IMG/VR virus record: IMGVR_UViG_3300008262_000008 | Length of the DNA: 64,000 bases | Strand: one strand, 5' to 3' | Source of the DNA: a virus | In this document: in pieces, positions 14,319 through 57,735 of the stretch | Numbering within the stretch: the first letter of the stretch is position 1 | Layout of the letters: the number at the start of each line of letters is the position of its first letter | Notes under the pieces: model-generated | Told to the model about the DNA's origin: nothing | Database searches by the model: none | Seen by the model: only the letters and a program-made list of their open reading frames with translations | Position numbers and translations under genes: made by a program

Positions 14319-14992
14319 CAGTTTTTTACTCCAATTAAAGAATAACGTGGTTCGTTCACATACCAATCTCTCTCAAGAAACGCGGAATGAAACAGATTTC
14401 CATCGTAGATAACGAGACGATTATACTTCATTTCCGAAAGATAATACATACACCACTTATCATCCTCAACAATAGTCTCCCATTCCGTTTCTTTATCAGA
14501 ACTATTCTTAACTGCACTCTCAATTTCTGCCTGAATCGCGGCGGGGGTCCTTTTCCAGTTAGTATATAACTTCTTATACGCATAAAATCCCGTGCCACCT
14601 TGACAATCCTGATTTAACCAAAGATTTGCTACGGTATCAGTATAGTCTACATGCGGGAGATTATTCCTAAATCGCGCAGGCATACTGCCAGAATAGATGT
14701 TAGTTGCCCAGGTAAAGAAGGTTTCTTCTCTAAAGAAATCATTCAGAAAGTTGTTGATATTATACAACCAACCTCTCGTAATATGTTGACGACTACCTGG
14801 TGATAAATCAAAGTTAAACTCTGAGTTAATAAACGCAGGGAAATACTCAAGGAACTCCCTACAATCTTCAGGGTGGGAGAGGAAGTCATCAAAATAATAC
14901 CAGTCAGCACCTAACACACTCTCTTTGTAGAAAGTATGTTTGGGATTAATCTGAGTGGCATGATCAACAAATGCTTTTGATAAAAAATTCAT
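14318..14992 (-). CDS. 2OG-Fe(II) oxygenase-like protein (DUF6445-like)
   Basis: PHVD (HxD), GGTGFY and YNRLVIYDGNLFHS (distal His) motifs. Confidence 0.75.
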   Translation of the reverse strand: MNFLSKAFVDHATQINPKHTFYKESVLGADWYYFDDFLSHPEDCREFLEYFPAFINSEFNFDLSPGSRQHITRGWLYNINNFLNDFFREETFFTWATNIYSGSMPARFRNNLPHVDYTDTVANLWLNQDCQGGTGFYAYKKLYTNWKRTPAAIQAEIESAVKNSSDKETEWETIVEDDKWCMYYLSEMKYNRLVIYDGNLFHSAFLERDWYVNEPRYSLIGVKN

Positions 14993-15150
14993 TCTTCAAC
15001 TTTTGTTAAAATAATAGTGTCTTCATCAAGTGAATATGAGATAACATCGCCTTCTAACCATCCCAATTCTTCAATGAGATCATCTGGTAATTTTACAAAT
15101 AAATCTCCACTATCGTCTTCTTCTAAATTAAGTGTATATTTTTTTGACAT
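14989..15150 (-). CDS. AbrB/MazE-like small DNA-binding protein (53 aa)
   Basis: Translated by hand: MSKKYTLNLEEDDSGDLFVKLPDDLIEELGWLEGDVISYSLDEDTIILTKVEE; xLPxxLxxxLGWxxGD swapped-hairpin pattern. Confidence 0.75.
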   Translation of the reverse strand: MSKKYTLNLEEDDSGDLFVKLPDDLIEELGWLEGDVISYSLDEDTIILTKVEE

Positions 15151-16489: not shown

Positions 16490-16768
16490 TCAGAGATCTT
16501 GCATCATTTCATTCATTTCGTCGGCATTGATCTTAGGATCGTTCCACTTAACGCCGTCCTTTGTTTTAACAAGATGGCGACCAATTTGCCCATCAATCAT
16601 ACAACGAACAAACTTATCCCAAGGCGTTTCGTTATCACCACAGAACTCAACACATGCTTTGGCAGTGTTATAGAGAAACTCATCATTGCCAATCCACAGT
16701 GCTACATTCCAGGTCTCATAATTTGCCCAACCGTTGTAACCTTTGTCGATGGTGTTGGTGATAGTCAT
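16490..16768 (-). CDS. Conserved phage hypothetical protein (YNGWANYETWNVALW motif)
   Basis: 92 aa; directly downstream of the promoter at 16814-16842. Confidence 0.8.
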   Translation of the reverse strand: MTITNTIDKGYNGWANYETWNVALWIGNDEFLYNTAKACVEFCGDNETPWDKFVRCMIDGQIGRHLVKTKDGVKWNDPKINADEMNEMMQDL

Positions 16769-16813: not shown

Positions 16814-16890
16814 AGTATGGCAGCAAATGGGGGGAAAGTCAAGGGGTTATCTATCAGTGCTGCTTATGGGTCAAATAAGAGGGTCTGATA
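16814..16890 (-). promoter_or_regulatory. Sigma70-type early promoter with two upstream dyads
   Basis: -35 TTGACT (16837-16842), 17 bp, -10 CATACT (16814-16819); dyads at 16852-16868 and 16874-16890. Confidence 0.8.
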
Positions 16891-16922
16891 GGTATATTTT
16901 GTGTGGGTCTGGGTAAAATCAC

Positions 16923-16951
16923 TTGACAAGTCGATAAATAACTGCTAAGGT
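16923..16951 (+). promoter_or_regulatory. Rightward (antisense) sigma70 promoter with an embedded late-promoter motif
   Basis: TTGACA (16923-16928), 17 bp, extended TGn-TAAGGT (16943-16951); ATAAATA at 16934-16940. Confidence 0.6.
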
Positions 16952-17025
16952 CTACATCAACTCCGCCTATTTTCTGATCATTCTCTCTATACACATCACG
17001 AACATATATTTTTTTAGGTATTTCT

Positions 17026-17105
17026 TTTTCCACAACTTTTTCCACAGAAATTAACACAAATTGTGGAAAACTTCCGCAACTAACATAGAAACATAGTTTT
17101 CCACA
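17026..17105. repeat. Cluster of four perfect TTTTCCACA nonamers (DnaA-box-like)
   Basis: + at 17026-17034, 17038-17046 and 17097-17105; reverse at 17062-17070. Confidence 0.85.
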
Positions 17106-17176
17106 TCCGCATCATCTAGAAACAAAAGTTCTTCTAACACGATTTCATCTAGTGGGAGATCTTCAGAGAATGACAT
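17051..17176 (-). CDS. Possible small acidic ORF (41 aa, MSFSEDLPLDEIVLEELL...)
   Basis: Translated by hand; overlaps two of the TTTTCCACA boxes. Confidence 0.4.
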   Translation of the reverse strand: MSFSEDLPLDEIVLEELLFLDDADVENYVSMLVAEVFHNLC

Positions 17177-17441
17177 CAGGATCAGCACCAACAGATTTAA
17201 TCATTTCAGAGACATCTTCATCATCATAGTATAAACGAAGTTCTGCAATCAGTTCATCTTGTTCTAGTCCTGAGACATTATTTACAATCGTATCGAATAC
17301 AAATTGTTCCATCGTTTTCATGTCCATGCTATCAACCAACTGAGTTGCATAGTTATCAACGAGGTCAGAGAGTTGTGCTTCGGTCAGCATAGTTTTAGAG
17401 GGTTCAGATTTAAGGACTTCAATGTAAAGATCTTCAGTCAT
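17163..17441 (-). CDS. Hypothetical acidic protein
   Basis: ORF track, in the minus-strand early gene run. Confidence 0.7.
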   Translation of the reverse strand: MTEDLYIEVLKSEPSKTMLTEAQLSDLVDNYATQLVDSMDMKTMEQFVFDTIVNNVSGLEQDELIAELRLYYDDEDVSEMIKSVGADPDVIL

Positions 17442-17540
17442 CTTTCTTCTTAGTTGTTGAATTGTGAGAAAAAAGTATAGGACGAATCTGTTTAGTATTG
17501 GTGCGAATTGCGTTTGTTTGACGTTGTTGACGGGACATGA

Positions 17541-17690
17541 TTAGTTGCCTTGAATGATGTCAGCAGCAGTGTGAAGTACCTCTCCTGTTGTATATCGTAC
17601 CGAGGGATTGAAGATAAACAACAGGAGGAAGATTAGACCTAGAACTTTCATCTTATCAGGTGACTTGAAAGTGAGAGTTTTAGAGGACAT
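17541..17690 (-). CDS. Small membrane protein
   Basis: Likely start MSSKT at 17690; one hydrophobic segment (VLGLIFLLLFIF). Confidence 0.65.
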   Translation of the reverse strand: MSSKTLTFKSPDKMKVLGLIFLLLFIFNPSVRYTTGEVLHTAADIIQGN

Positions 17691-17692
17691 CT

Positions 17693-18007
17693 TCAGTTCA
17701 GACGCATACCAGAGAAGAAAGGAATCGTCATGCCATTGTAACGAATGAACCACTTAAAGTCTTTCTGAAAGACATACTCACCAGGGCAACCATGCTCGGC
17801 AAGAATAGCATTGAGGCGGGACTTTGTGGTAACAGTTTGCCAACCACCATCGAAAAGTTCAATCCAAGTTTCACCAATGCGAGCGATCAGATTACCATGC
17901 AGGTACACATCGCTGGAGTTAGTATAAGAAATGACTTCGGTATTCTTACACTTCCAATCTTTGCCGTTGGTGATAGCAGTGTTCATTTGGCGTTCGATTT
18001 GGCGCAT
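17693..18007 (-). CDS. Conserved cyanophage hypothetical protein (MRQIERQM...)
   Basis: 104 aa; first gene after the promoter at 18034. Confidence 0.8.
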   Translation of the reverse strand: MRQIERQMNTAITNGKDWKCKNTEVISYTNSSDVYLHGNLIARIGETWIELFDGGWQTVTTKSRLNAILAEHGCPGEYVFQKDFKWFIRYNGMTIPFFSGMRLN

Positions 18008-18033
18008 TTGAGGCGTTTCCTGATTACCTTGTA

Positions 18034-18110
18034 AGGATAGAACGGATCGGGCAGAAAGTCAAGCGTTTTGAGATTAGTGTTGCTTATCAGACTGATTAGC
18101 AACGATTATC
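18034..18110 (-). promoter_or_regulatory. Sigma70-type early promoter with tandem dyads
   Basis: TTGACT (18057-18062), 17 bp, TATCCT (18034-18039); dyads at 18072-18088 and 18094-18110. Confidence 0.85.
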
Positions 18111-18273
18111 GATTCTTATATTGACAATCAGGGGAAAACTCTTTAATCTGTTCGCAGATTTGTGCCTGACGTTGTTTGTATGCATCAAACATTTTGTTAT
18201 CACGTTGGATCAGAAATACGTTCCAACCGAGAATAGCAGCAAATGCAAGTGTGGCGTAAAGATAGAGTTTCAT
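18106..18273 (-). CDS. Small membrane protein (55 aa, MKLYLYATLAFAAILGW...)
   Basis: Translated by hand; N-terminal hydrophobic helix. Confidence 0.65.
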   Translation of the reverse strand: MKLYLYATLAFAAILGWNVFLIQRDNKMFDAYKQRQAQICEQIKEFSPDCQYKNR

Positions 18274-18292
18274 GATTCAATTTAGAATTAAA

Positions 18293-18565
18293 TTAAACGA
18301 GGCAAAGTGCAGGAGCAGGTTGAACCAAATAGGAGAAACGTGTTGCCGTTACAGATGCACCAGCAAGACCAATCTCATCTACAATCTCCCACTCATCTTC
18401 CATCTCACGAATTACAACATAACCGAAAGTTCCTGCGATTGGCATTTGCTCAAGACCACAACGTTCTGCCTGTCGTTGAGTGCTAAAACGCTCTTTACGA
18501 TTCCACCAACCGAGACGATTTACGTCTTCAGAAGGTCCGAAACTGATGCAAATGTATTCAGGCAT
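18293..18565 (-). CDS. Hypothetical protein
   Basis: ORF track, 90 aa. Confidence 0.65.
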   Translation of the reverse strand: MPEYICISFGPSEDVNRLGWWNRKERFSTQRQAERCGLEQMPIAGTFGYVVIREMEDEWEIVDEIGLAGASVTATRFSYLVQPAPALCLV

Positions 18566-18568
18566 GAT

Positions 18569-18730
18569 TTACACAGAAGGAGTAACGTTGATCTCTTTAA
18601 TGTTCAACCCACAGAGTTGATTGTAGACCCGATTGAGAATAAGTTTGTCGGCGGTCTTTGCCTTTGATTTCTCATACCAAATGGTCACACATCCATCGTA
18701 GGTCTCAACACGAACACGATAGTTTTTCAT
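18569..18730 (-). CDS. Small hypothetical protein (53 aa, MKNYRVRVETYDGC...)
   Basis: Translated by hand; ATGA-type overlap with the neighbour. Confidence 0.65.
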   Translation of the reverse strand: MKNYRVRVETYDGCVTIWYEKSKAKTADKLILNRVYNQLCGLNIKEINVTPSV

Positions 18731-18909
18731 GCGTTGTCGATTAGATCTTGTTCAATCTGGTGAAGTGTACTTACTGTCCAGTTCTCAGGATTACCATGAG
18801 GAGCATACAGTTGACTATAGCGAAGACCATAAAGATCAGGATTTAGATGTTGCAACTGTTCAAGAGTTTCAGCGATCTTAACGCTGATTTGGTGTTGATA
18901 ATCACTCAT
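18727..18909 (-). CDS. Hypothetical protein
   Basis: ORF track, 60 aa. Confidence 0.65.
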   Translation of the reverse strand: MSDYQHQISVKIAETLEQLQHLNPDLYGLRYSQLYAPHGNPENWTVSTLHQIEQDLIDNA

Positions 18910-18912
18910 GAT

Positions 18913-19077
18913 TCAGTAGTTAGAAACAACGGTGAAGATGATGCCAGTTTCGTTATAACGAAGAGTCACATCACAGTAATACTCTTCAGACAGATTGTAG
19001 GCGAGATCGTATGCCTTATCCATGTCAGTGGTAGTGTTCTCCCACGGTGCAGCGGGGCAAAGAACATCAACTCGCAT
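18913..19077 (-). CDS. Small hypothetical protein (54 aa, MRVDVLCPAAPWEN...)
   Basis: Translated by hand; first gene after the promoter at 19104. Confidence 0.7.
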   Translation of the reverse strand: MRVDVLCPAAPWENTTTDMDKAYDLAYNLSEEYYCDVTLRYNETGIIFTVVSNY

Positions 19078-19103
19078 TTGTTTCGTTTCCTGATTACCTT
19101 GTA

Positions 19104-19158
19104 AGGATAGGACGGATCACGCCAAAAGTCAAGCGTTTTGAGATTAGTGTTGCTTATC
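19104..19158 (-). promoter_or_regulatory. Sigma70-type early promoter with dyad
   Basis: TTGACT (19127-19132), 17 bp, TATCCT (19104-19109); dyad at 19142-19158. Confidence 0.85.
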
Positions 19159-19393
19159 GAAGAATGTGCCGATAATCAATTTCCCTAATCAACCAACCTG
19201 ATTGTGTTGCAATCTCTTCGCACAGTTCGTATGCTATATCAGCATCATCTGCATCGTTGTTTAGATCTAACTCAAAGATCTGTCCAATATAACGAGAGGG
19301 CAAAAACTCTTCAGTTTCAAGTTGATCTTGCTCACTCCAATCGTCATCATCAAGTGAACAATCAAATGCGATGTCAGTAACTTGAACTTGCAT
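19154..19393 (-). CDS. Hypothetical acidic protein
   Basis: ORF track, 79 aa. Confidence 0.7.
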   Translation of the reverse strand: MQVQVTDIAFDCSLDDDDWSEQDQLETEEFLPSRYIGQIFELDLNNDADDADIAYELCEEIATQSGWLIREIDYRHILR

Positions 19394-19395
19394 GA

Positions 19396-19524
19396 TTATT
19401 TGCGGAGAGGAGAATTGAAATAACGACGGAAAGCAGTAACAAGAATGATACCCGTCGAAATAACACCAACGAGACCAAGGAAGGTAACAGCATCGCCGCT
19501 GAAAGTGTAAGTATCAGGGTTCAT
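19396..19524 (-). CDS. Small membrane peptide (42 aa, MNPDTYTFSGDAVTFLGLVG...)
   Basis: Translated by hand; single TM segment followed by RR. Confidence 0.7.
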   Translation of the reverse strand: MNPDTYTFSGDAVTFLGLVGVISTGIILVTAFRRYFNSPLRK

Positions 19525-19766
19525 CAAAGTCCTCCTGCTTGATTAACAAATGATTTAGCATCGCAAACTGTATCAAAGTATGCGATAGTTTCAAGATCAA
19601 CAGCAGCAGCACCTGCAGCGAGATCTATATTCTTTACCTTACGAAGTTCGAATCCTTCGAGAACACCACCATAAATCTCACCAATATATTGTCCATCGAG
19701 AAAGATCCATTCTTGATAGTTAGGATCTGCCATGTTGCGCTCGTATGCAATAGAATTGTTGTTCAT
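19524..19766 (-). CDS. Hypothetical protein
   Basis: ORF track 19524..19775; likely start MNNN at 19766. Confidence 0.65.
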   Translation of the reverse strand: MNNNSIAYERNMADPNYQEWIFLDGQYIGEIYGGVLEGFELRKVKNIDLAAGAAAVDLETIAYFDTVCDAKSFVNQAGGL

Positions 19767-19771
19767 GATAA

Positions 19772-19918
19772 TCAACCTTGAGAAGCGTAGGACATCATTG
19801 CAATCACTTTATCGTACAGTTTCTCTACATCAACACCAACAGTTTCGGACACTTCTTGCCAATCATCATGAAAAGTGATAAGATCAGCGATTGCGGAAAG
19901 TTCGTCTGGAGTGAACAT
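19772..19918 (-). CDS. Small hypothetical protein (48 aa, MFTPDELSAIADL...)
   Basis: Translated by hand; first gene after the promoter at 19942. Confidence 0.65.
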   Translation of the reverse strand: MFTPDELSAIADLITFHDDWQEVSETVGVDVEKLYDKVIAMMSYASQG

Positions 19919-19941
19919 TTGTTTTCTTTGCTTACCTTGTA

Positions 19942-19996
19942 AGGATAGAACGGATTGCGGGAAAAGTCAAGCGTTTTGAGATTAGCGTTTCTTATG
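19942..19996 (-). promoter_or_regulatory. Sigma70-type early promoter with dyad
   Basis: TTGACT (19965-19970), 17 bp, TATCCT (19942-19947); dyad at 19980-19996. Confidence 0.85.
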
Positions 19997-20018
19997 GGTT
20001 AGATAAGAGACTCAAATG

Positions 20019-20597
20019 TCAGTTTTCCAGCATTTCAGTGATAATAGGACCGAGCACATCTTGAAAGAAAGTGAAGAACTCAGTAGACGTAAATGGTACG
20101 TTTCCAAGTGTATCAATCATCCAATTTACACCATACACAGTGATACCTTTCTTGCCATACTTCTTGATCACACTAGTCGGAACTTCAGCAATACAGGGCA
20201 CAAAATACCCAAACTGCACAGGCAAATTATACTTTGCTTCCACTGCTTCCTTTACATCGAGCACCTTCTGATTAGATGCTGGATTCTTCTCACTATCGAA
20301 GTTCAGATTACACTTGCTTTCAAGATATTGAATTGCACCACTTTTAGCAAAGAGATGATCTAACTGACGCTCACGCCCATTTACATCAATTCGATTGCTT
20401 TCTTCGATGAGATTAACTGAACAATCGCTAATTACCTTGTTCCAGAAGATTTCAAGTTGATTGCCTAATTGAATGAGCACACCATTTTGTGATACTTTAT
20501 CACCCAATCCTGCTGCTGCCAGCAAATAACTTTCCGTCTTTTTACGCTCAATTTGCAACACCAAGGGAAGCAGATTGTCAGTGAGATAGTTGTTCAT
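20019..20597 (-). CDS. Putative PD-(D/E)xK nuclease-fold protein
   Basis: RQLDHLF...YLESK gives a D...ExK arrangement; upstream LGNQLEIFW helix with Glu. Confidence 0.5.
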   Translation of the reverse strand: MNNYLTDNLLPLVLQIERKKTESYLLAAAGLGDKVSQNGVLIQLGNQLEIFWNKVISDCSVNLIEESNRIDVNGRERQLDHLFAKSGAIQYLESKCNLNFDSEKNPASNQKVLDVKEAVEAKYNLPVQFGYFVPCIAEVPTSVIKKYGKKGITVYGVNWMIDTLGNVPFTSTEFFTFFQDVLGPIITEMLEN

Positions 20598-20618
20598 TTG
20601 TGGTGATAATGAGGGTTT

Positions 20619-20741
20619 TCAGTCGTTCCAATACTCATCATATTCTTCTTCCGACATAGCAAACACCTTTGCAATCTCTTCACGATCTTCTTCACTAATG
20701 TCGAAGATTTCGCCTTGCATGTCAGCAATTTCGTCCCACAT
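20619..20741 (-). CDS. Small acidic peptide (40 aa, MWDEIADMQGE...)
   Basis: Translated by hand; first gene after the promoter at 20766. Confidence 0.6.
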   Translation of the reverse strand: MWDEIADMQGEIFDISEEDREEIAKVFAMSEEEYDEYWND

Positions 20742-20765
20742 GTGCTTTGTTTCGATTACTTTGTA

Positions 20766-20820
20766 ATGATAGAACGGATTGCCCCAAAAGTCAACCCCTG
20801 AAAGATCAGTGTTGCTTATG
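20766..20820 (-). promoter_or_regulatory. Sigma70-type early promoter with dyad
   Basis: TTGACT (20789-20794), 17 bp, TATCAT (20766-20771); dyad at 20804-20820. Confidence 0.85.
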
Positions 20821-20822
20821 GG

Positions 20823-21716
20823 TCACCATGCCTTTGCCAAGTTAAAGTTATTGAAACTAAAGACTTGACGATTGACTAGTTTGAGCGTACCATAATCGTT
20901 CGACATCACATAACCTTCGTGATCCGCAATTTGTCCATCAATATAACAGCAAACTCCGTATTCAGGAATAATCAAGTTCATGAAATCTTGCTTGATAGAC
21001 ATAATCATGCGGTAAAATGCGAACAATGCGACATCATAACCAGTTTCTTCCGCAAGTGCTGCGGGGTCAATATCTTTGCCTTCACGAATATAACGATTGA
21101 GCACAATCTTGAGATCTTTTGCTTGCTTTTCAGTCACAAAATCAACAGCAGCAGACAAGAACATTGCACTGCAAACTTTACGTTGCAGTGCAACATTTGC
21201 AGTAGGATCTACCTGAGCACCAAACTTGACAAAATAGACTTTATCATTGCTGATCAGTTCAGGTACATCAAACGATGCAACTACATCACGAAGATTATCA
21301 CCAGTGTACGAAGTATGGCAAGCAATGATAAACTGTTGCTTGATGATATTGTCAAACTTATAGGTGATAGTATTAGGGCGATAGGTATCATCACCACCGA
21401 AACCAATAAAATCACCTTGCACAATACCTTTGATGCGAGGCAGACAATCAAATGCTACATGCAAAATATCAGCAACTTTACCCTCATGGTTAGCATCAAT
21501 CAACTCATGAGAATAGTTGATCTTGATTTTCTTTTTATTGAAGACAGATTTAGTACCAACGAAGAACTTTCCAGTTTCAGGATCAGTGCCAAACACAATA
21601 GCAGGAGCACCATCCCATTTGATGCTAACTTTGCCAGAATGAGTGAACCAATCCAGCACTGACATATCGCCAGTGAGAATAAGATCTTCAGGATGTTCGA
21701 GATGGGTGTTTTTCAT
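20823..21716 (-). CDS. Conserved T4-like phage protein (DUF6267-like) with covalent nucleotidyltransferase / ligase motifs
   Basis: MKNTHLEHPED start; KWDG (motif I KxDG), QGDF (III), HEGYV (IV), LKLV (V). Confidence 0.7.
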   Translation of the reverse strand: MKNTHLEHPEDLILTGDMSVLDWFTHSGKVSIKWDGAPAIVFGTDPETGKFFVGTKSVFNKKKIKINYSHELIDANHEGKVADILHVAFDCLPRIKGIVQGDFIGFGGDDTYRPNTITYKFDNIIKQQFIIACHTSYTGDNLRDVVASFDVPELISNDKVYFVKFGAQVDPTANVALQRKVCSAMFLSAAVDFVTEKQAKDLKIVLNRYIREGKDIDPAALAEETGYDVALFAFYRMIMSIKQDFMNLIIPEYGVCCYIDGQIADHEGYVMSNDYGTLKLVNRQVFSFNNFNLAKAW

Positions 21717-21722
21717 GCTTTA

Positions 21723-21799
21723 AGTATGGCACACAATCAGGCAAAAGTCAACCCCTGAATGATCAGCGTTGCTTATCAGACAGAATAGGTCAACTTATC
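21723..21799 (-). promoter_or_regulatory. Sigma70-type early promoter (predicted leaderless transcript) with tandem dyads
   Basis: TTGACT (21746-21751), 17 bp, CATACT (21723-21728); ATG 7 nt downstream; dyads at 21761-21777 and 21783-21799. Confidence 0.85.
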
Positions 21800-22051
21800 T
21801 TTTAACTTTTGCATCGCACTGTAGGGTGTAGTTTTATTCAGATCAACTACACTTCCAACGGTTGTGCTATTCTTTGGTGCGTGGAATTGTTTTGTCTTGG
21901 TGTTGTAGAATCCCCAGATACAACGACATTCATCACCCAAATTGTAATCAAACCTACGATCAAAATAAATCCAGATTGCAATAACATTGCTCTTAAAGTC
22001 TGTGCGCTCATAGTGATAACCTTCGGGTGCTTTATGAAATAATAGTTTCAT
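21776..22051 (-). CDS. Conserved cyanophage hypothetical protein
   Basis: ORF track, 91 aa. Confidence 0.75.
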   Translation of the reverse strand: MKLLFHKAPEGYHYERTDFKSNVIAIWIYFDRRFDYNLGDECRCIWGFYNTKTKQFHAPKNSTTVGSVVDLNKTTPYSAMQKLKDKLTYSV

Positions 22052-22191
22052 GTGAATACTGCTGTAACTCCTATCACTTTAGCAGTAGGATTGCGAGCAA
22101 GTGCAGTACGCTTAGCATCAGCATAATCTCGTGCTTCAACTATCTCATCGAACACTTTGCCAGCAACATATAACTGAACTTTGCACTTCAT
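22048..22191 (-). CDS. Small hypothetical protein (47 aa, MKCKVQLYVAGKVFDEIVEARDYADAK...ARNP)
   Basis: Translated by hand; coupled at both ends; resembles the N-terminus of 34997..35332. Confidence 0.75.
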   Translation of the reverse strand: MKCKVQLYVAGKVFDEIVEARDYADAKRTALARNPTAKVIGVTAVFT

Positions 22192-22370
22192 CGTGTTTGA
22201 TTACGATACTTTCTCTTGACATATTTGCTCACAATATTATCAATCACAGGATACCATGGTTCTTTATTGCTAGGGTATCCAAGTTGCCGTGCTTCAGTGA
22301 GCAACATCATGATGCAGTTCTCTTCTTCTTGAGTGAGATTGAGGTAATTGATAATACTAGTTTCAATCAT
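22188..22370 (-). CDS. Hypothetical protein
   Basis: ORF track, 60 aa. Confidence 0.65.
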   Translation of the reverse strand: MIETSIINYLNLTQEEENCIMMLLTEARQLGYPSNKEPWYPVIDNIVSKYVKRKYRNQTR

Positions 22371-22600
22371 CAGTAGTGTGCTTCAGAGTAATCGAGTTGT
22401 GCAGAGTATTCTGCAATTTTATCGAAACACTTTTTACGCATTTCGGTATCAGCACCTTGCATAAATGAGAAGCAATACTTCATACGCTGTTCAGGATGTG
22501 CATTGATGCGAGCAATCTCTGCCTTCGATTTGTTGTATGCGGCATTATATGCAAACATTTCACGATCTTCGATGCTCATGGTGTGAAACTTGCGGTTCAT
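22370..22600 (-). CDS. Hypothetical protein
   Basis: ORF track; first gene after the promoter at 22623. Confidence 0.7.
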   Translation of the reverse strand: MNRKFHTMSIEDREMFAYNAAYNKSKAEIARINAHPEQRMKYCFSFMQGADTEMRKKCFDKIAEYSAQLDYSEAHY

Positions 22601-22622
22601 GTCGTTTCCTGATTACCTTGTA

Positions 22623-22677
22623 ATAATAAGGCAAAAGGGGGCAGATGTCAACCCCCTATTGATCAGCGTTACTTATG
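22623..22677 (-). promoter_or_regulatory. Sigma70-type early promoter with dyad
   Basis: TTGACA (22646-22651), 17 bp, TATTAT (22623-22628); dyad at 22661-22677. Confidence 0.85.
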
Positions 22678-22693
22678 AGTATGATAAAGTATT

Positions 22694-22816
22694 TTAATAT
22701 GTCATATTGTCATCAATTCTATAGTCTTCAGGATCACCGATGGTATCATCTTCCATCACATCATCAATCCAATCACGATTAAGTTCATCGCATTGAATGT
22801 CATCAAAAATGTTCAT
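22694..22816 (-). CDS. Small, very acidic peptide (40 aa)
   Basis: Translated by hand, MNIFDDIQCDELNRDWIDDVMEDD... Confidence 0.55.
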   Translation of the reverse strand: MNIFDDIQCDELNRDWIDDVMEDDTIGDPEDYRIDDNMTY

Positions 22817-22944
22817 GATTGTTTCTTTAATTTCTGAATAAATTGGTTACGTTGTTTCTTGAGTTGACGTGTTCGAGCAGAACGTTTAGGAGATTTATCG
22901 TTTCTCCCTTGTTTTCTCGGTGTTTCGTGTGATTTGAGGTGCAT
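22813..22944 (-). CDS. Small, very basic peptide (43 aa)
   Basis: Translated by hand, MHLKSHETPRKQGRNDKSPKRSAR...; ATGA overlap with the acidic peptide. Confidence 0.55.
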   Translation of the reverse strand: MHLKSHETPRKQGRNDKSPKRSARTRQLKKQRNQFIQKLKKQS

Positions 22945-23109
22945 TGTTCTTACTCATAGTCATAATCTATGATATAATCTATACTATAATCATCATATTC
23001 AATTTCATATTCTTCATCTGTTATGATTGGTTCTCTAAACTCTTTAACCCATTCAGAGAGAGATACTGTTGTAGAATACGGATTGAACTTGTTATACATG
23101 AGTTAGTCC

Positions 23110-23286
23110 TCAACGTTGATAATCTTCTTCAGAGAACTCATCATAGATCTTTTCTAGTTTTCGTTGGCGATTATTCTGTTTTTTAACATCATAACTGAAC
23201 TCATCATGGAAACGAAACCTAGTAGAAACTTTGTTTCGATGTGACTTTGGAGTATAGTCACTGTTACGACGGAAAGTTTTACCCAT
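23110..23286 (-). CDS. Small hypothetical protein (58 aa, MGKTFRR...)
   Basis: Translated by hand; basic N-terminus. Confidence 0.6.
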   Translation of the reverse strand: MGKTFRRNSDYTPKSHRNKVSTRFRFHDEFSYDVKKQNNRQRKLEKIYDEFSEEDYQR

Positions 23287-23409
23287 GTTTAATGTGATTT
23301 AAGCAATGTAAAGTACAATTTATTTAGACGACATGCAATCATTTTTGATTGCCTAGACATCATAGACCTCTTGCCAGTTGTTGTCAATAGGTCCAGTTTG
23401 GAAAGTGGA

Positions 23410-24639
23410 TCAGCGGGTTGCCACACTGATAGCAGGCAGACCTTGCACGAAGATGGTGTCAACAACCCCTTGCAATCTCTTGGCAATAGCACTACCATAG
23501 TTGGTGAACACTGGCACGATCACACTACCAAACTGTTTGCGATACAGATGACATGCACCTGCAGGAATACGACCAGCAGCAATATCCTTGGCATCATCTT
23601 TGTCCATACGGATAACACGACCGACAGTTTGTGCCATCTCGATGATAGGCATTTGACGCAACATGATGCAGTTGGTGAGACCAGGAACGTTGATACCTTC
23701 GGAAAGAATACTATAGTGAAGGAGCACAAACTTCTTGGATTTGTCTTTGCCCCACTCAGTCAGAGTGTCAAAGAACTTCTCACGATTGACCTTGGTACGA
23801 TTAACATAGGCACCGTGCTTAGAAGTGATGTGAAGGATGCCAAATCCACGCTCTTCAAGTTCCCTAAGAATGTCAGAGTTAGTGAGCATGTTCCACATCA
23901 CTTTGGTGCTGGGAGCAGCAACGAGCACCTTAGGATTGCCCTCCAGAGTGTCAAGAATGTCAACAATCATGTTACGATCTGCCTCAGCAGCAGTACGCTT
24001 ATCACGGGTGATGTCTACTTTGTAGGTATCAACTTGTGGAGGAATGATGCAACCAGTGTCAATCAGTTCTTTAGCAGCAACGTTGTGAATAATGTTGCCG
24101 TAGATGCTAACGTTGTTCATGCCGTTAGCATTAGGATTGGTATGATGTTTGGGAGTTGCAGTGAAGAAATACTTGCTATCTGCAGACATCGAAGTAGCAG
24201 CAACAGCAATAAAGTGAGACTTTTGAGTAGAATTGTGTGCCTCGTCGAAGTATGCTACATCAACATTCACACCAGCATCAACAACACGACCCAGAGAATG
24301 ATAGGTAGTGAAGATGATACGATTGGTGCCTGCATGTTGAGTAACCCAATCCGCAATCTTGTCGGATTTGGTAGTAGAATAGTGATGTGTCTCACCACTA
24401 TGAACGTGCATCACATTTGCAGAGGTGATAAACTCAAGAAACTCTGCAGAGAGTTGCTCAGCAAGCAGAATACGAGGTGCTACAACAACAGCAACCTGAC
24501 CAGGATTCTGCACAAAACGTTGCAGCAAGTTCATGATCATAACAAGAGTTTTCCCACCACCAGTAGGAAAAATAATTTGCCCAATATCGTGCTGGTTCAT
24601 TGCATCGAGAGCACGAGATTGATGTAGACGTAATTTCAT
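23410..24639 (-). CDS. Superfamily II DEAH-box helicase (ResIII-like)
   Basis: PTGGGKT (Walker A), YFDEAH, TATP, SEGINV and QTVGRVIR; likely start MKLRLHQ at 24639 (track start 24657 lies upstream of the predicted TSS). Confidence 0.9.
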   Translation of the reverse strand: MKLRLHQSRALDAMNQHDIGQIIFPTGGGKTLVMIMNLLQRFVQNPGQVAVVVAPRILLAEQLSAEFLEFITSANVMHVHSGETHHYSTTKSDKIADWVTQHAGTNRIIFTTYHSLGRVVDAGVNVDVAYFDEAHNSTQKSHFIAVAATSMSADSKYFFTATPKHHTNPNANGMNNVSIYGNIIHNVAAKELIDTGCIIPPQVDTYKVDITRDKRTAAEADRNMIVDILDTLEGNPKVLVAAPSTKVMWNMLTNSDILRELEERGFGILHITSKHGAYVNRTKVNREKFFDTLTEWGKDKSKKFVLLHYSILSEGINVPGLTNCIMLRQMPIIEMAQTVGRVIRMDKDDAKDIAAGRIPAGACHLYRKQFGSVIVPVFTNYGSAIAKRLQGVVDTIFVQGLPAISVATR

Positions 24640-24660
24640 AACAAAGTCGATCACCATGTA

Positions 24661-24715
24661 AATATCCCATAAAAAAGAGGGTTTGTCAACCCCCTATTGA
24701 TCAGTAAAACTAATC
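24661..24715 (-). promoter_or_regulatory. Sigma70-type promoter / terminator hairpin with dyad
   Basis: TTGACA at 24684-24689 lies in the hairpin AGGGGGTT-GAC-AAACCCTCT-TTTTT; weak -10; dyad GATCAG-TAAAA-CTAATC at 24699-24715. Confidence 0.65.
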
Positions 24716-31036: not shown

Positions 31037-31093
31037 GTAGGAAGAGTATTAGTAAAAATAATGTCAGGTATAACTTATCCTTATCAGACGGGT

Positions 31094-35354: not shown

Positions 35355-35410
35355 ATTGTACATCAAAAAAGGGGGCGTGTCAACCCCCTGATCAATAAGT
35401 AATACTTATA
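35355..35410 (-). promoter_or_regulatory. Sigma70-type promoter / terminator hairpin with variant dyad
   Basis: TTGACA (35378-35383), 17 bp, TACAAT (35355-35360); -35 inside AGGGGG-TTGACACG-CCCCCT-TTTTT; ATAAG-N5-CTTAT at 35395-35409. Confidence 0.8.
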
Positions 35411-57706: not shown

Positions 57707-57735
57707 ATAGTAGCACGATACTACTATTCTGTCAA
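57707..57735 (-). promoter_or_regulatory. Sigma70-type promoter for the tRNA-Val/Ile pair
   Basis: TTGACA (57730-57735), 17 bp, TACTAT (57707-57712). Confidence 0.8.

Follow-up and report, generated by a model that had tools for sequence, protein, structure and literature searches.

A 17-bp dyad box at a fixed distance from predicted promoters of a T4-like cyanomyovirus and its counterpart in picocyanobacterial genomes

Symmetric operators arranged in tandem are familiar from several phages: lambda CI and Cro act at OR and OL, two dimers of P22 Arc occupy half-sites about 11 bp apart, and p4 of phi29 works upstream of A2c/A3. In E. coli oriC the sites of IHF and Fis flank DnaA boxes, and both proteins also act upstream of phage early promoters. 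Cyanobacteria are not known to have IHF or Fis, nor are T4-like cyanophages known to have the MotA/AsiA switch of T4; picocyanobacteria possess very few transcription factors. The timing of gene expression in T4-like cyanophages is only partly known, and host-like promoters reportedly drive the middle genes of Syn9. The palindrome CGRE1 (21–22 nt) begins 55–57 nt upstream of the yfr2 transcription start site and is bound by PMM1637 (PMC6191309), while promoter-early stem-loops (PeSLs) are cassettes of the T4-type phages RB49/phi1, T4/PST and KVP40/nt-1 (Arbiol 2010, PMC2839356; Comeau 2014, PMC4122927); for the ORFanage region of cyanophage S-PM2 the PeSL mechanism was judged unlikely (PMC4503421). 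Here we describe a 17-bp two-fold symmetric box in a 64,000-nucleotide stretch of viral DNA (IMG/VR record IMGVR_UViG_3300008262_000008, hereafter the window), which belongs to a T4-like cyanomyovirus (Kyanoviridae). The box precedes predicted promoters of many small-gene cassettes in this phage and in more than 100 related viral contigs. With a probability of about 0.55 we read it as an operator, placed inside mobile promoter cassettes, to which a dimeric, sequence-specific and probably host-encoded protein would bind.

Nearly all long open reading frames (ORFs) of the window lie on the minus strand, and its promoters were therefore read in this orientation. In the sense direction the layout is SATAAG-N5-CTRATC, 9 bp, TTGACW as the −35 element, 17 bp, the −10 element, a leader and ATG. 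The half-site is GATnAG, often lengthened to GATnAGCA, with half-site centres 11 bp apart, and in GATnAG-N5-CTnATC all five specified positions of one arm are complementary to those of the other, which is symmetry of the dimer type. The sequence-only reading, an earlier inspection of the window made without database searches, had placed such dyads exactly 9 bp from TTGAC at eight promoters and variants at two more. All eight are there, six as exact copies and two with one mismatch each (16852 and 24699), as are both variants with a gap of 10 bp:

16852–16868, minus strand: dyad box, sense sequence CATAAGCAGCACTGATA, 9 bp ahead of the −35 element TTGACT (16842–16837); heads the DUF7249 gene 16490–16768
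18072–18088, minus strand: exact dyad box, 9 bp to the −35 element 18062–18057; heads the Kyano_Gp96 gene 17693–18007; lies in the 86-nt repeat
19142–19158, minus strand: exact dyad box, 9 bp to the −35 element 19132–19127; heads a 54-aa ORF
19980–19996, minus strand: exact dyad box, 9 bp to the −35 element 19970–19965; partial second copy at 20002–20018
20804–20820, minus strand: exact dyad box, 9 bp to the −35 element 20794–20789; heads a 40-aa ORF (MWDEIAD...)
21761–21777, minus strand: exact dyad box, 9 bp to the −35 element 21751–21746; heads the DUF6267 gene 20823–21716
22661–22677, minus strand: exact dyad box, 9 bp to the −35 element 22651–22646, which a G5/C5 hairpin encloses in its loop; a T-run comes after the hairpin
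24699–24715, minus strand: weaker dyad, sense sequence GATTAGTTTTACTGATC, 9 bp to the −35 element 24689–24684; heads the ResIII/DEAD-type helicase gene 23410–24657
31047–31063, minus strand: degenerate variant, 10-bp gap to the −35 element 31036–31031
35394–35410, minus strand: variant, sense sequence TATAAGTATTACTTATT, 10-bp gap to the −35 element 35383–35378, around which there is a terminator-like G5/C5 hairpin with a T-run

Read on the minus strand, the box ends exactly 9 bp ahead of TTGAC at all eight main sites, and at all ten sites a sigma70-like promoter, a leader and the ATG of a small gene follow, as is typical of PeSLs. The −10 elements are TATCCT, TATCAT, TATTAT or CATACT, and the genes served encode DUF7249, Kyano_Gp96, DUF6267 and the ResIII/DEAD-type helicase along with several tiny ORFs. 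The exact pattern GATYAG-N5-CTTATS was found in the window six times against 0.05 expected, and none of 100 shuffles got to six. The window copies are nevertheless not independent, because they share repeats: one 86-nt repeat takes in five sites, and 45 nt are common to seven. The tRNA-proximal promoters at 57735 and 53521 are free of the box, as the sequence-only reading had maintained. A reading of the box as a GATC/Dam site was rejected: three of the eight window copies have the form CTAATC with no GATC in the box, and this form is common in relatives too (48 of 114 tallied boxes).

The closest record to the window is Synechococcus phage S-CREM1, which infects the estuarine strain CB0101, with 85% identity across just 19% of a 9-kb query. 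Twenty-five loci of relatives were gathered by means of their helicase protein, that is, chosen without the motif. Their gene strands carry 73 boxes, 40 of them at 9 bp and 17 at 10 bp from TTGAC, with 7 more located 22 bp further, and the opposite strand has almost none. The 10-bp gap (17 of 57) is thus a true second class, and the positional fixity in relatives on which the earlier claim had been made to depend holds in these loci. All of IMG/VR was also scanned for the box followed by TTGAC at a fixed gap, which gave 9 stretches for a gap of 7 bp, 18 for 8 bp, at least 119 for 9 bp and at least 120 for 10 bp. A −10 element was present in 0 of 8 and 1 of 13 cases for the two shorter gaps, and in 81 of 102 (9 bp) and 78 of 105 (10 bp) among the matches listed for the longer ones. 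Among the matches listed for the 9-bp gap linkers, spacers and leaders differ widely, and 68 of 119 loci have proteins in common with the window. Even in promoters that fail the strict pattern near-matches cluster solely at the usual offset and at +22. Only gaps of 9–10 bp are therefore kept in diverged relatives, and such conservation of position and helical phase is what one expects of an operator. At the helicase promoter the box is kept in orthologues from 24 related loci, where the arms are retained; what varies is N5, the 9-bp linker and even the gene upstream. The assertion that the arms are conserved and the N5 spacer varies is consequently justified for orthologous promoters of relatives, but not inside the window, where N5 is constant (plus strand YGTTK, sense CAACR).

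One promoter class of the relatives has the dyad without TTGAC; it carries a conserved box TGGTTTTGTATCACCACGAACTAC and a −10 element shifted 21 bp further than usual (loci and positions L134:2610, L135:5337, L141:4580, L142:4216, L151:5567, L156:1553 and L058:4421). In four of these seven loci the following gene matches the DUF7249 gene of the window in its leader and start. The sequence TGGTTTTGTATCACCACGAACTAC may be another type of regulatory box.

The second feature of the arrangement is its doubling. Among 67 distinct cassettes a second site stands exactly 22 bp upstream in 26–31 and exactly 32 bp upstream in 9–12, and essentially nothing scores at any other offset. Second copies at exactly +22 had been proposed for five window promoters. 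Four of them are substantiated with one or two mismatches, against about 0.003 expected (8 promoters × 2 strands × per-position rate), whereas at 31069 only one arm is retained; the copies at 16874 and 20002 have two mismatches each and are read on the other strand. Apart from the partial copy at 20002–20018 listed above, these are:

16874–16890, no strand assigned: inverted second copy with two mismatches, 22 bp upstream, with a promoter-like TTGACA-17-TAAGGT site (plus strand, 16923) 32 bp away
18094–18110, plus strand: inverted second copy with one mismatch, 22 bp away, and 10 bp upstream of a plus-strand TTGACA (18121–18126)-17-TAATCT
21783–21799, no strand assigned: second copy with one mismatch, 22 bp upstream, within the end of the upstream ORF

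What the sequence-only reading missed is that the second box often faces a divergent promoter. The 18072/18094 unit has two dyads flanked by a pair of diverging promoters. Where two dyads are present, the reverse −35 element (GTCAA) lies 9–10 bp past the second one, and in 26 of 129 cassettes with the 10-bp gap it is found at the same distance past the far side of a single dyad. With tandem phage operators this organization shares a two-fold symmetric site of about 17 bp, two sites about two helical turns apart and a position between divergent promoters. It differs from them in that the sites are upstream of the −35 element, not over the core promoter, in that the box is copied to at least 10 promoters per genome, and in that the regulator is probably host-encoded. 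The plus-strand sigma70-like sites at 18121–18149 and 16923–16951 point away from the dyads in a window with all its genes on the minus strand, and antisense or non-coding transcripts would result from them.

Since a symmetric site serves promoters in both directions, a symmetric protein is favoured over a UP element or an RNA signal. According to the latter view the box is a UP-element-like contact for the alpha C-terminal domains (alpha-CTD) of the host RNA polymerase, or else an RNA element (a hairpin or terminator in the 3' untranslated region) of the upstream gene. The box indeed spans about −61 to −45, i.e. the distal UP region, a conserved A is situated 5 bp ahead of the −35 element, and the box comes after the stop codon of the upstream gene. 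Conserved positions of the box, however, include G and C, and it is a dyad instead of an A/T-rich tract without dyad symmetry such as UP elements have at −40 to −60. It has no stable RNA fold, six of eight copies having a delta-G of 0, in the window its position 4 stands against position 14 as A against R, a combination that never pairs, and the conserved host copy described below has no promoter 9 bp away. Taken together with the symmetric use by divergent promoters, this makes such a contact or RNA element the least probable of all explanations considered here.

The sites belong to longer cassettes, a circumstance which had also escaped notice. The complete one, used as the reference copy for repeat families D1 and D2, is:

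18003–18110, minus strand: complete cassette composed of the second dyad, dyad, 9-bp linker, −35 element, 17-bp spacer, −10 element (TATCCT), conserved leader TACAAGGTAATCAGGAAAC and ATG

In 66 cassettes of relatives the −35 element is TTGACT in 57 cases, and the −10 element is chiefly CATACT (24) or TATTGT (16). In 31 of the 66 the linker can pair with the spacer as a G-run/C-run hairpin whose loop holds the −35 element, and a T-run comes after it in 13. One and the same stretch of DNA would thus be both a promoter and a terminator-like hairpin for the upstream transcript. Hairpin-enclosed −35 elements with a T-run are observed in the window at 22640–22665, 24680–24700 and 35370–35395 and in many related loci, with GATCC of the spacer pairing with GGATC of the linker. 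Gene modules are scrambled between the window phage and S-CREM1, three window cassettes correspond to one cassette of S-CREM1, and the cassettes sit at borders of rearranged modules, where unlike upstream genes are joined at the box, as is also the case with PeSLs. Judging by the sequences compared, the boxes head what appear to be PeSL-like composite mobile promoter/hairpin cassettes at shuffled module borders. Like PeSLs they are composite and repeated, combining a sigma70-like promoter with a Shine-Dalgarno sequence, a start codon and, in part of the cassettes, a potential stem-loop, and they head small genes in hyperplastic regions, at borders of modules shuffled between relatives. They are different in their hosts (cyanobacteria instead of enterobacteria and vibrios), in the hairpin, which holds the −35 element in its loop but precedes the promoter in PeSLs, and in the sequence-specific 17-bp dyad at 9–10 bp, often doubled, in place of an upstream region described for PeSLs as “generally AT-rich”.

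This anatomy raises the possibility that there is no dedicated protein at all and that the box owes its conservation to being the 5' edge of a mobile PeSL-type cassette homogenised by recombination. The 86-nt and 45-nt repeat families, the scrambled modules with three cassettes matching one of S-CREM1, the joining of the box to differing upstream genes, the frequent hairpin with its occasional T-run and the very existence of described PeSLs are all in line with this idea. Homology of this kind, however, does not explain why conserved arms stand beside a freely varying linker and N5, why the box has two-fold symmetry, why second sites are confined to 22 or 32 bp, or why the box is placed symmetrically between divergent promoters. 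Boxes retained where the leader and the −10 element differ, as well as the host counterpart, are left without explanation too, and we consider a mere cassette edge improbable.

The host counterpart was approached from psbA of S-CREM1, which led to a Cyanobium genome and from there to 121 genomes of Cyanobiaceae. They contain 342 dyads versus 72 for a reversed control, but this figure is unreliable, because the codon words GATCAG/CTGATC, which account for most high-GC matches, and the avoidance of CTAG confound it. Among 45 host loci selected by the motif, 11 were upstream of a DUF2811 gene, and the genome-wide count was replaced by an unbiased sample of 30 loci picked by the DUF2811 domain alone. 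GATnAG-N5-CTnATC with no more than one mismatch is present in 24 of the 30 and is exact in 15. In nearly all scored loci a nonamer of the TTTTCCACA type is located 65–68 bp (mostly 67) downstream of the dyad start. Genomes ranging from the Prochlorococcus-like to the Cyanobium-like type share the dyad as a conserved element; outside Cyanobiaceae DUF2811 genes retain nonamer arrays, but the dyad is not kept. High-GC hosts have the perfect palindrome GATCAGCACTGCTGATC, and some phage copies are GATAAGCACTGCTGATC, one base apart from it. It is this conservation of the same dyad in picocyanobacterial genomes that favours a host-encoded protein.

Among cyanophages the arrangement was not found in Syn9, S-PM2, S-RIM8 and P-RSM1, whereas S-H38 has two copies of the box and S-CREM1 several, and the box-using phages appear to make up a large cyanomyovirus clade of estuaries and fresh water. 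With the early-gene element of marine T4-like cyanophages, reportedly described by Doron et al. in 2016, and with CGRE1 the present box shares a palindromic shape, a fixed distance ahead of promoters of many small phage genes and a host counterpart. One can ask, then, whether it is simply a diverged CGRE1-type site of the host GntR regulator PlmA/PMM1637, i.e. the known early-gene element of T4-like cyanophages, and the position of CGRE1 ahead of yfr2 together with its binding of PMM1637 lends this some appeal. Sequence and spacing are different, however: CGRE1 has GTTG/GTTA flanks, inverted repeats 13–14 nt apart (GTTG...13–14 nt...CAAC; PMC6191309) and a GTGATCAC-like centre, unlike GATnAG-N5-CTnATC, and the present box comes on top of a full −35/−10 promoter. 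In the window GTTR-N13/14-YAAC occurs at chance level with no promoter association, in five host genomes no dyad with up to two mismatches was found upstream of the plmA-type GntR gene, there being a few matches downstream of the domain start, and Syn9 does without the box. A CGRE1-type origin is hence very improbable.

Among 100 ORFs of the window the only domain of the DNA-binding type belongs to a 53-aa MazE/AbrB-type protein (14992–15150, minus strand; Pfam E = 5.5e-4), which is present in many motif-bearing contigs. Its occurrence, the limitation of the box to one clade of cyanomyoviruses and the appearance of the site, since phage repressors classically use 17-bp operators in tandem at a distance of two turns, are all arguments for an operator bound by a regulator that the phage itself encodes, such as an early or middle product that silences promoters like p4 of phi29 or lambda-type repressors. 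In that case the host dyad would be there by coincidence, or the phage protein would target it too. We find such a regulator rather unlikely. The MazE/AbrB-type protein is encoded also by Syn9, S-PM2, S-RIM8 and P-RSM1, all of which lack the box, and as a clade-specific binder it was rejected; a search for a clade-specific phage regulator in the 64-kb window found none; and a phage protein cannot account for a dyad conserved from Prochlorococcus-like to Cyanobium-like genomes. The MazE/AbrB-type (SpoVT-AbrB-like) protein is conserved in S-CREM1, Syn9, S-PM2, S-H38, S-RIM8 and P-RSM1, with no toxin gene noted alongside.

Another candidate for the factor binding the dyad could be DUF2811 itself. 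The protein is small, with a conserved domain that reads as strand-helix-helix, and the idea that it may be a ribbon-helix-helix protein comes from its sequence alone. Weak Pfam scans listed no ribbon-helix-helix family, comparison with PDB sequences gave nothing significant (best E 0.62–0.77), and the AlphaFold model has three helices with a mean predicted local distance difference test score (pLDDT) of 64. As a DNA-binding fold it was rejected; Foldseek returned nothing at E ≤ 0.001, and the best VIA-align hits (Z = 5.0) were unrelated chains. No DUF2811 homologue was found in the phage loci searched.

Based on the sequence, symmetry, geometry, distribution and host counterpart of the box, all of them observed, we infer that it is bound by a protein, that this protein comes from the host and that transcription is affected. 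If a dimeric, probably host-encoded protein uses the box as its operator, the dimer would dock on the GATnAG half-sites of the 17-bp box, the centre of which is set by the cassette design near −53 of a sigma70-type promoter (TTGACT, 17 bp, CATACT/TATTGT/TATCCT). From there the protein would act on RNA polymerase from the −35/alpha-CTD side, either as an activator or as a repressor. The second site two or three helical turns upstream would bind a second dimer on the same face of DNA or be the operator of the divergent promoter, and the host protein would have been co-opted by the estuarine/freshwater clade of cyanomyoviruses. The sequence-only reading had likewise proposed a dimeric regulator at about −53 and −75. 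Dyad symmetry, rigidity of the 9–10 bp gap, second sites at 22 and 32 bp, divergent use, conservation of the arms and the host copy support that part of its picture and agree poorly with the alternatives. The picture, however, omitted the cassettes and divergent promoters, and its label “early” for the regulon is an assumption.

Several points weigh against an operator of this kind. No binding protein emerged from the candidates considered, and the genome-wide enrichment in hosts is confounded by codon words and CTAG avoidance. The host dyad does not stand beside a −35 element, so the uses made of it by host and phage differ, and marine cyanomyoviruses do not use the box although their hosts also have the dyad. 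Many cassette copies are kin by descent or recombination, and the counts given above are for this reason not independent events. The −35 element departs little from consensus, which leaves no obvious need for an activator, and a centre at −53 is outside the classical class I positions.

Irrespective of the protein, the finding itself is real and general. The box with its 9–10 bp rule can serve as a marker, in cyanophage contigs from metagenomes, of promoters and of the borders of modules, and its host counterpart is a precise bait for finding a picocyanobacterial regulator. A promoter-linked palindrome differing from those described, spread in a large environmental clade, would show that lineages fit different regulator sites into one cassette design.

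In the window the neighbourhood of the dyad has one more feature in common with the host:

17026–17105, no strand assigned: four exact TTTTCCACA/TGTGGAAAA nonamers of the DnaA-box type; the 16852/16874 dyad pair is about 135 bp away

In host genomes these two kinds of element are neighbours as well. In phage relatives 104 nonamers were counted in 1.2 Mb against about 9 expected, and 16 nonamer clusters were found. Clusters of at least three exact TTTTCCACA/TGTGGAAAA nonamers, several of them within 300 bp of a dyad, were seen in loci L001, L011, L022, L038, L042, L043, L055, L057, L059, L060, L063, L064, L096, L103 and L121. Such clusters could be signs of a phage origin or of a sink for DnaA. 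With IHF/Fis systems the arrangement shares a host dyad at a fixed distance from DnaA-box-type arrays and a phage dyad upstream of promoters, once near a DnaA-box cluster, but the sequences are dissimilar and the host module is not beside dnaN. The host module was rejected as oriC, dnaN being located elsewhere in five genomes, and Rfam gave no match on host modules at gathering or E-value thresholds.

A wider proposal is put forward tentatively, as one that may well turn out to be wrong: an undescribed DNA-binding factor of picocyanobacteria may recognize the dyad GATnAGCA-N-TGCTnATC, which upstream of DUF2811 genes keeps a constant distance to arrays of the DnaA-box type, and a large estuarine/freshwater T4-like clade may have copied this site to dozens of promoters and to a place beside its own DnaA-box cluster. 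If that is true, phage expression, and perhaps the start of replication, would be coupled to the state of the host dyad-binding factor. The question of the role of the DUF2811/DnaA-box module arises in any case; no mention of DUF2811 was found in the literature searched.

DUF2811 genes have arrays of TTTTCCACA-type nonamers across cyanobacterial orders, often with about 21 bp between them and 200–650 bp upstream (host loci L293–L322 and L328–L356), for which no published description was found. Picocyanobacteria have 2–3 DUF2811 paralogues, with the module present at two or more of them. A conserved GTGGAGAACTAGTG-like sequence stands behind a TTGAC-type −35 element, immediately before the DUF2811 start, in host loci L271, L273, L255, L257 and L286.

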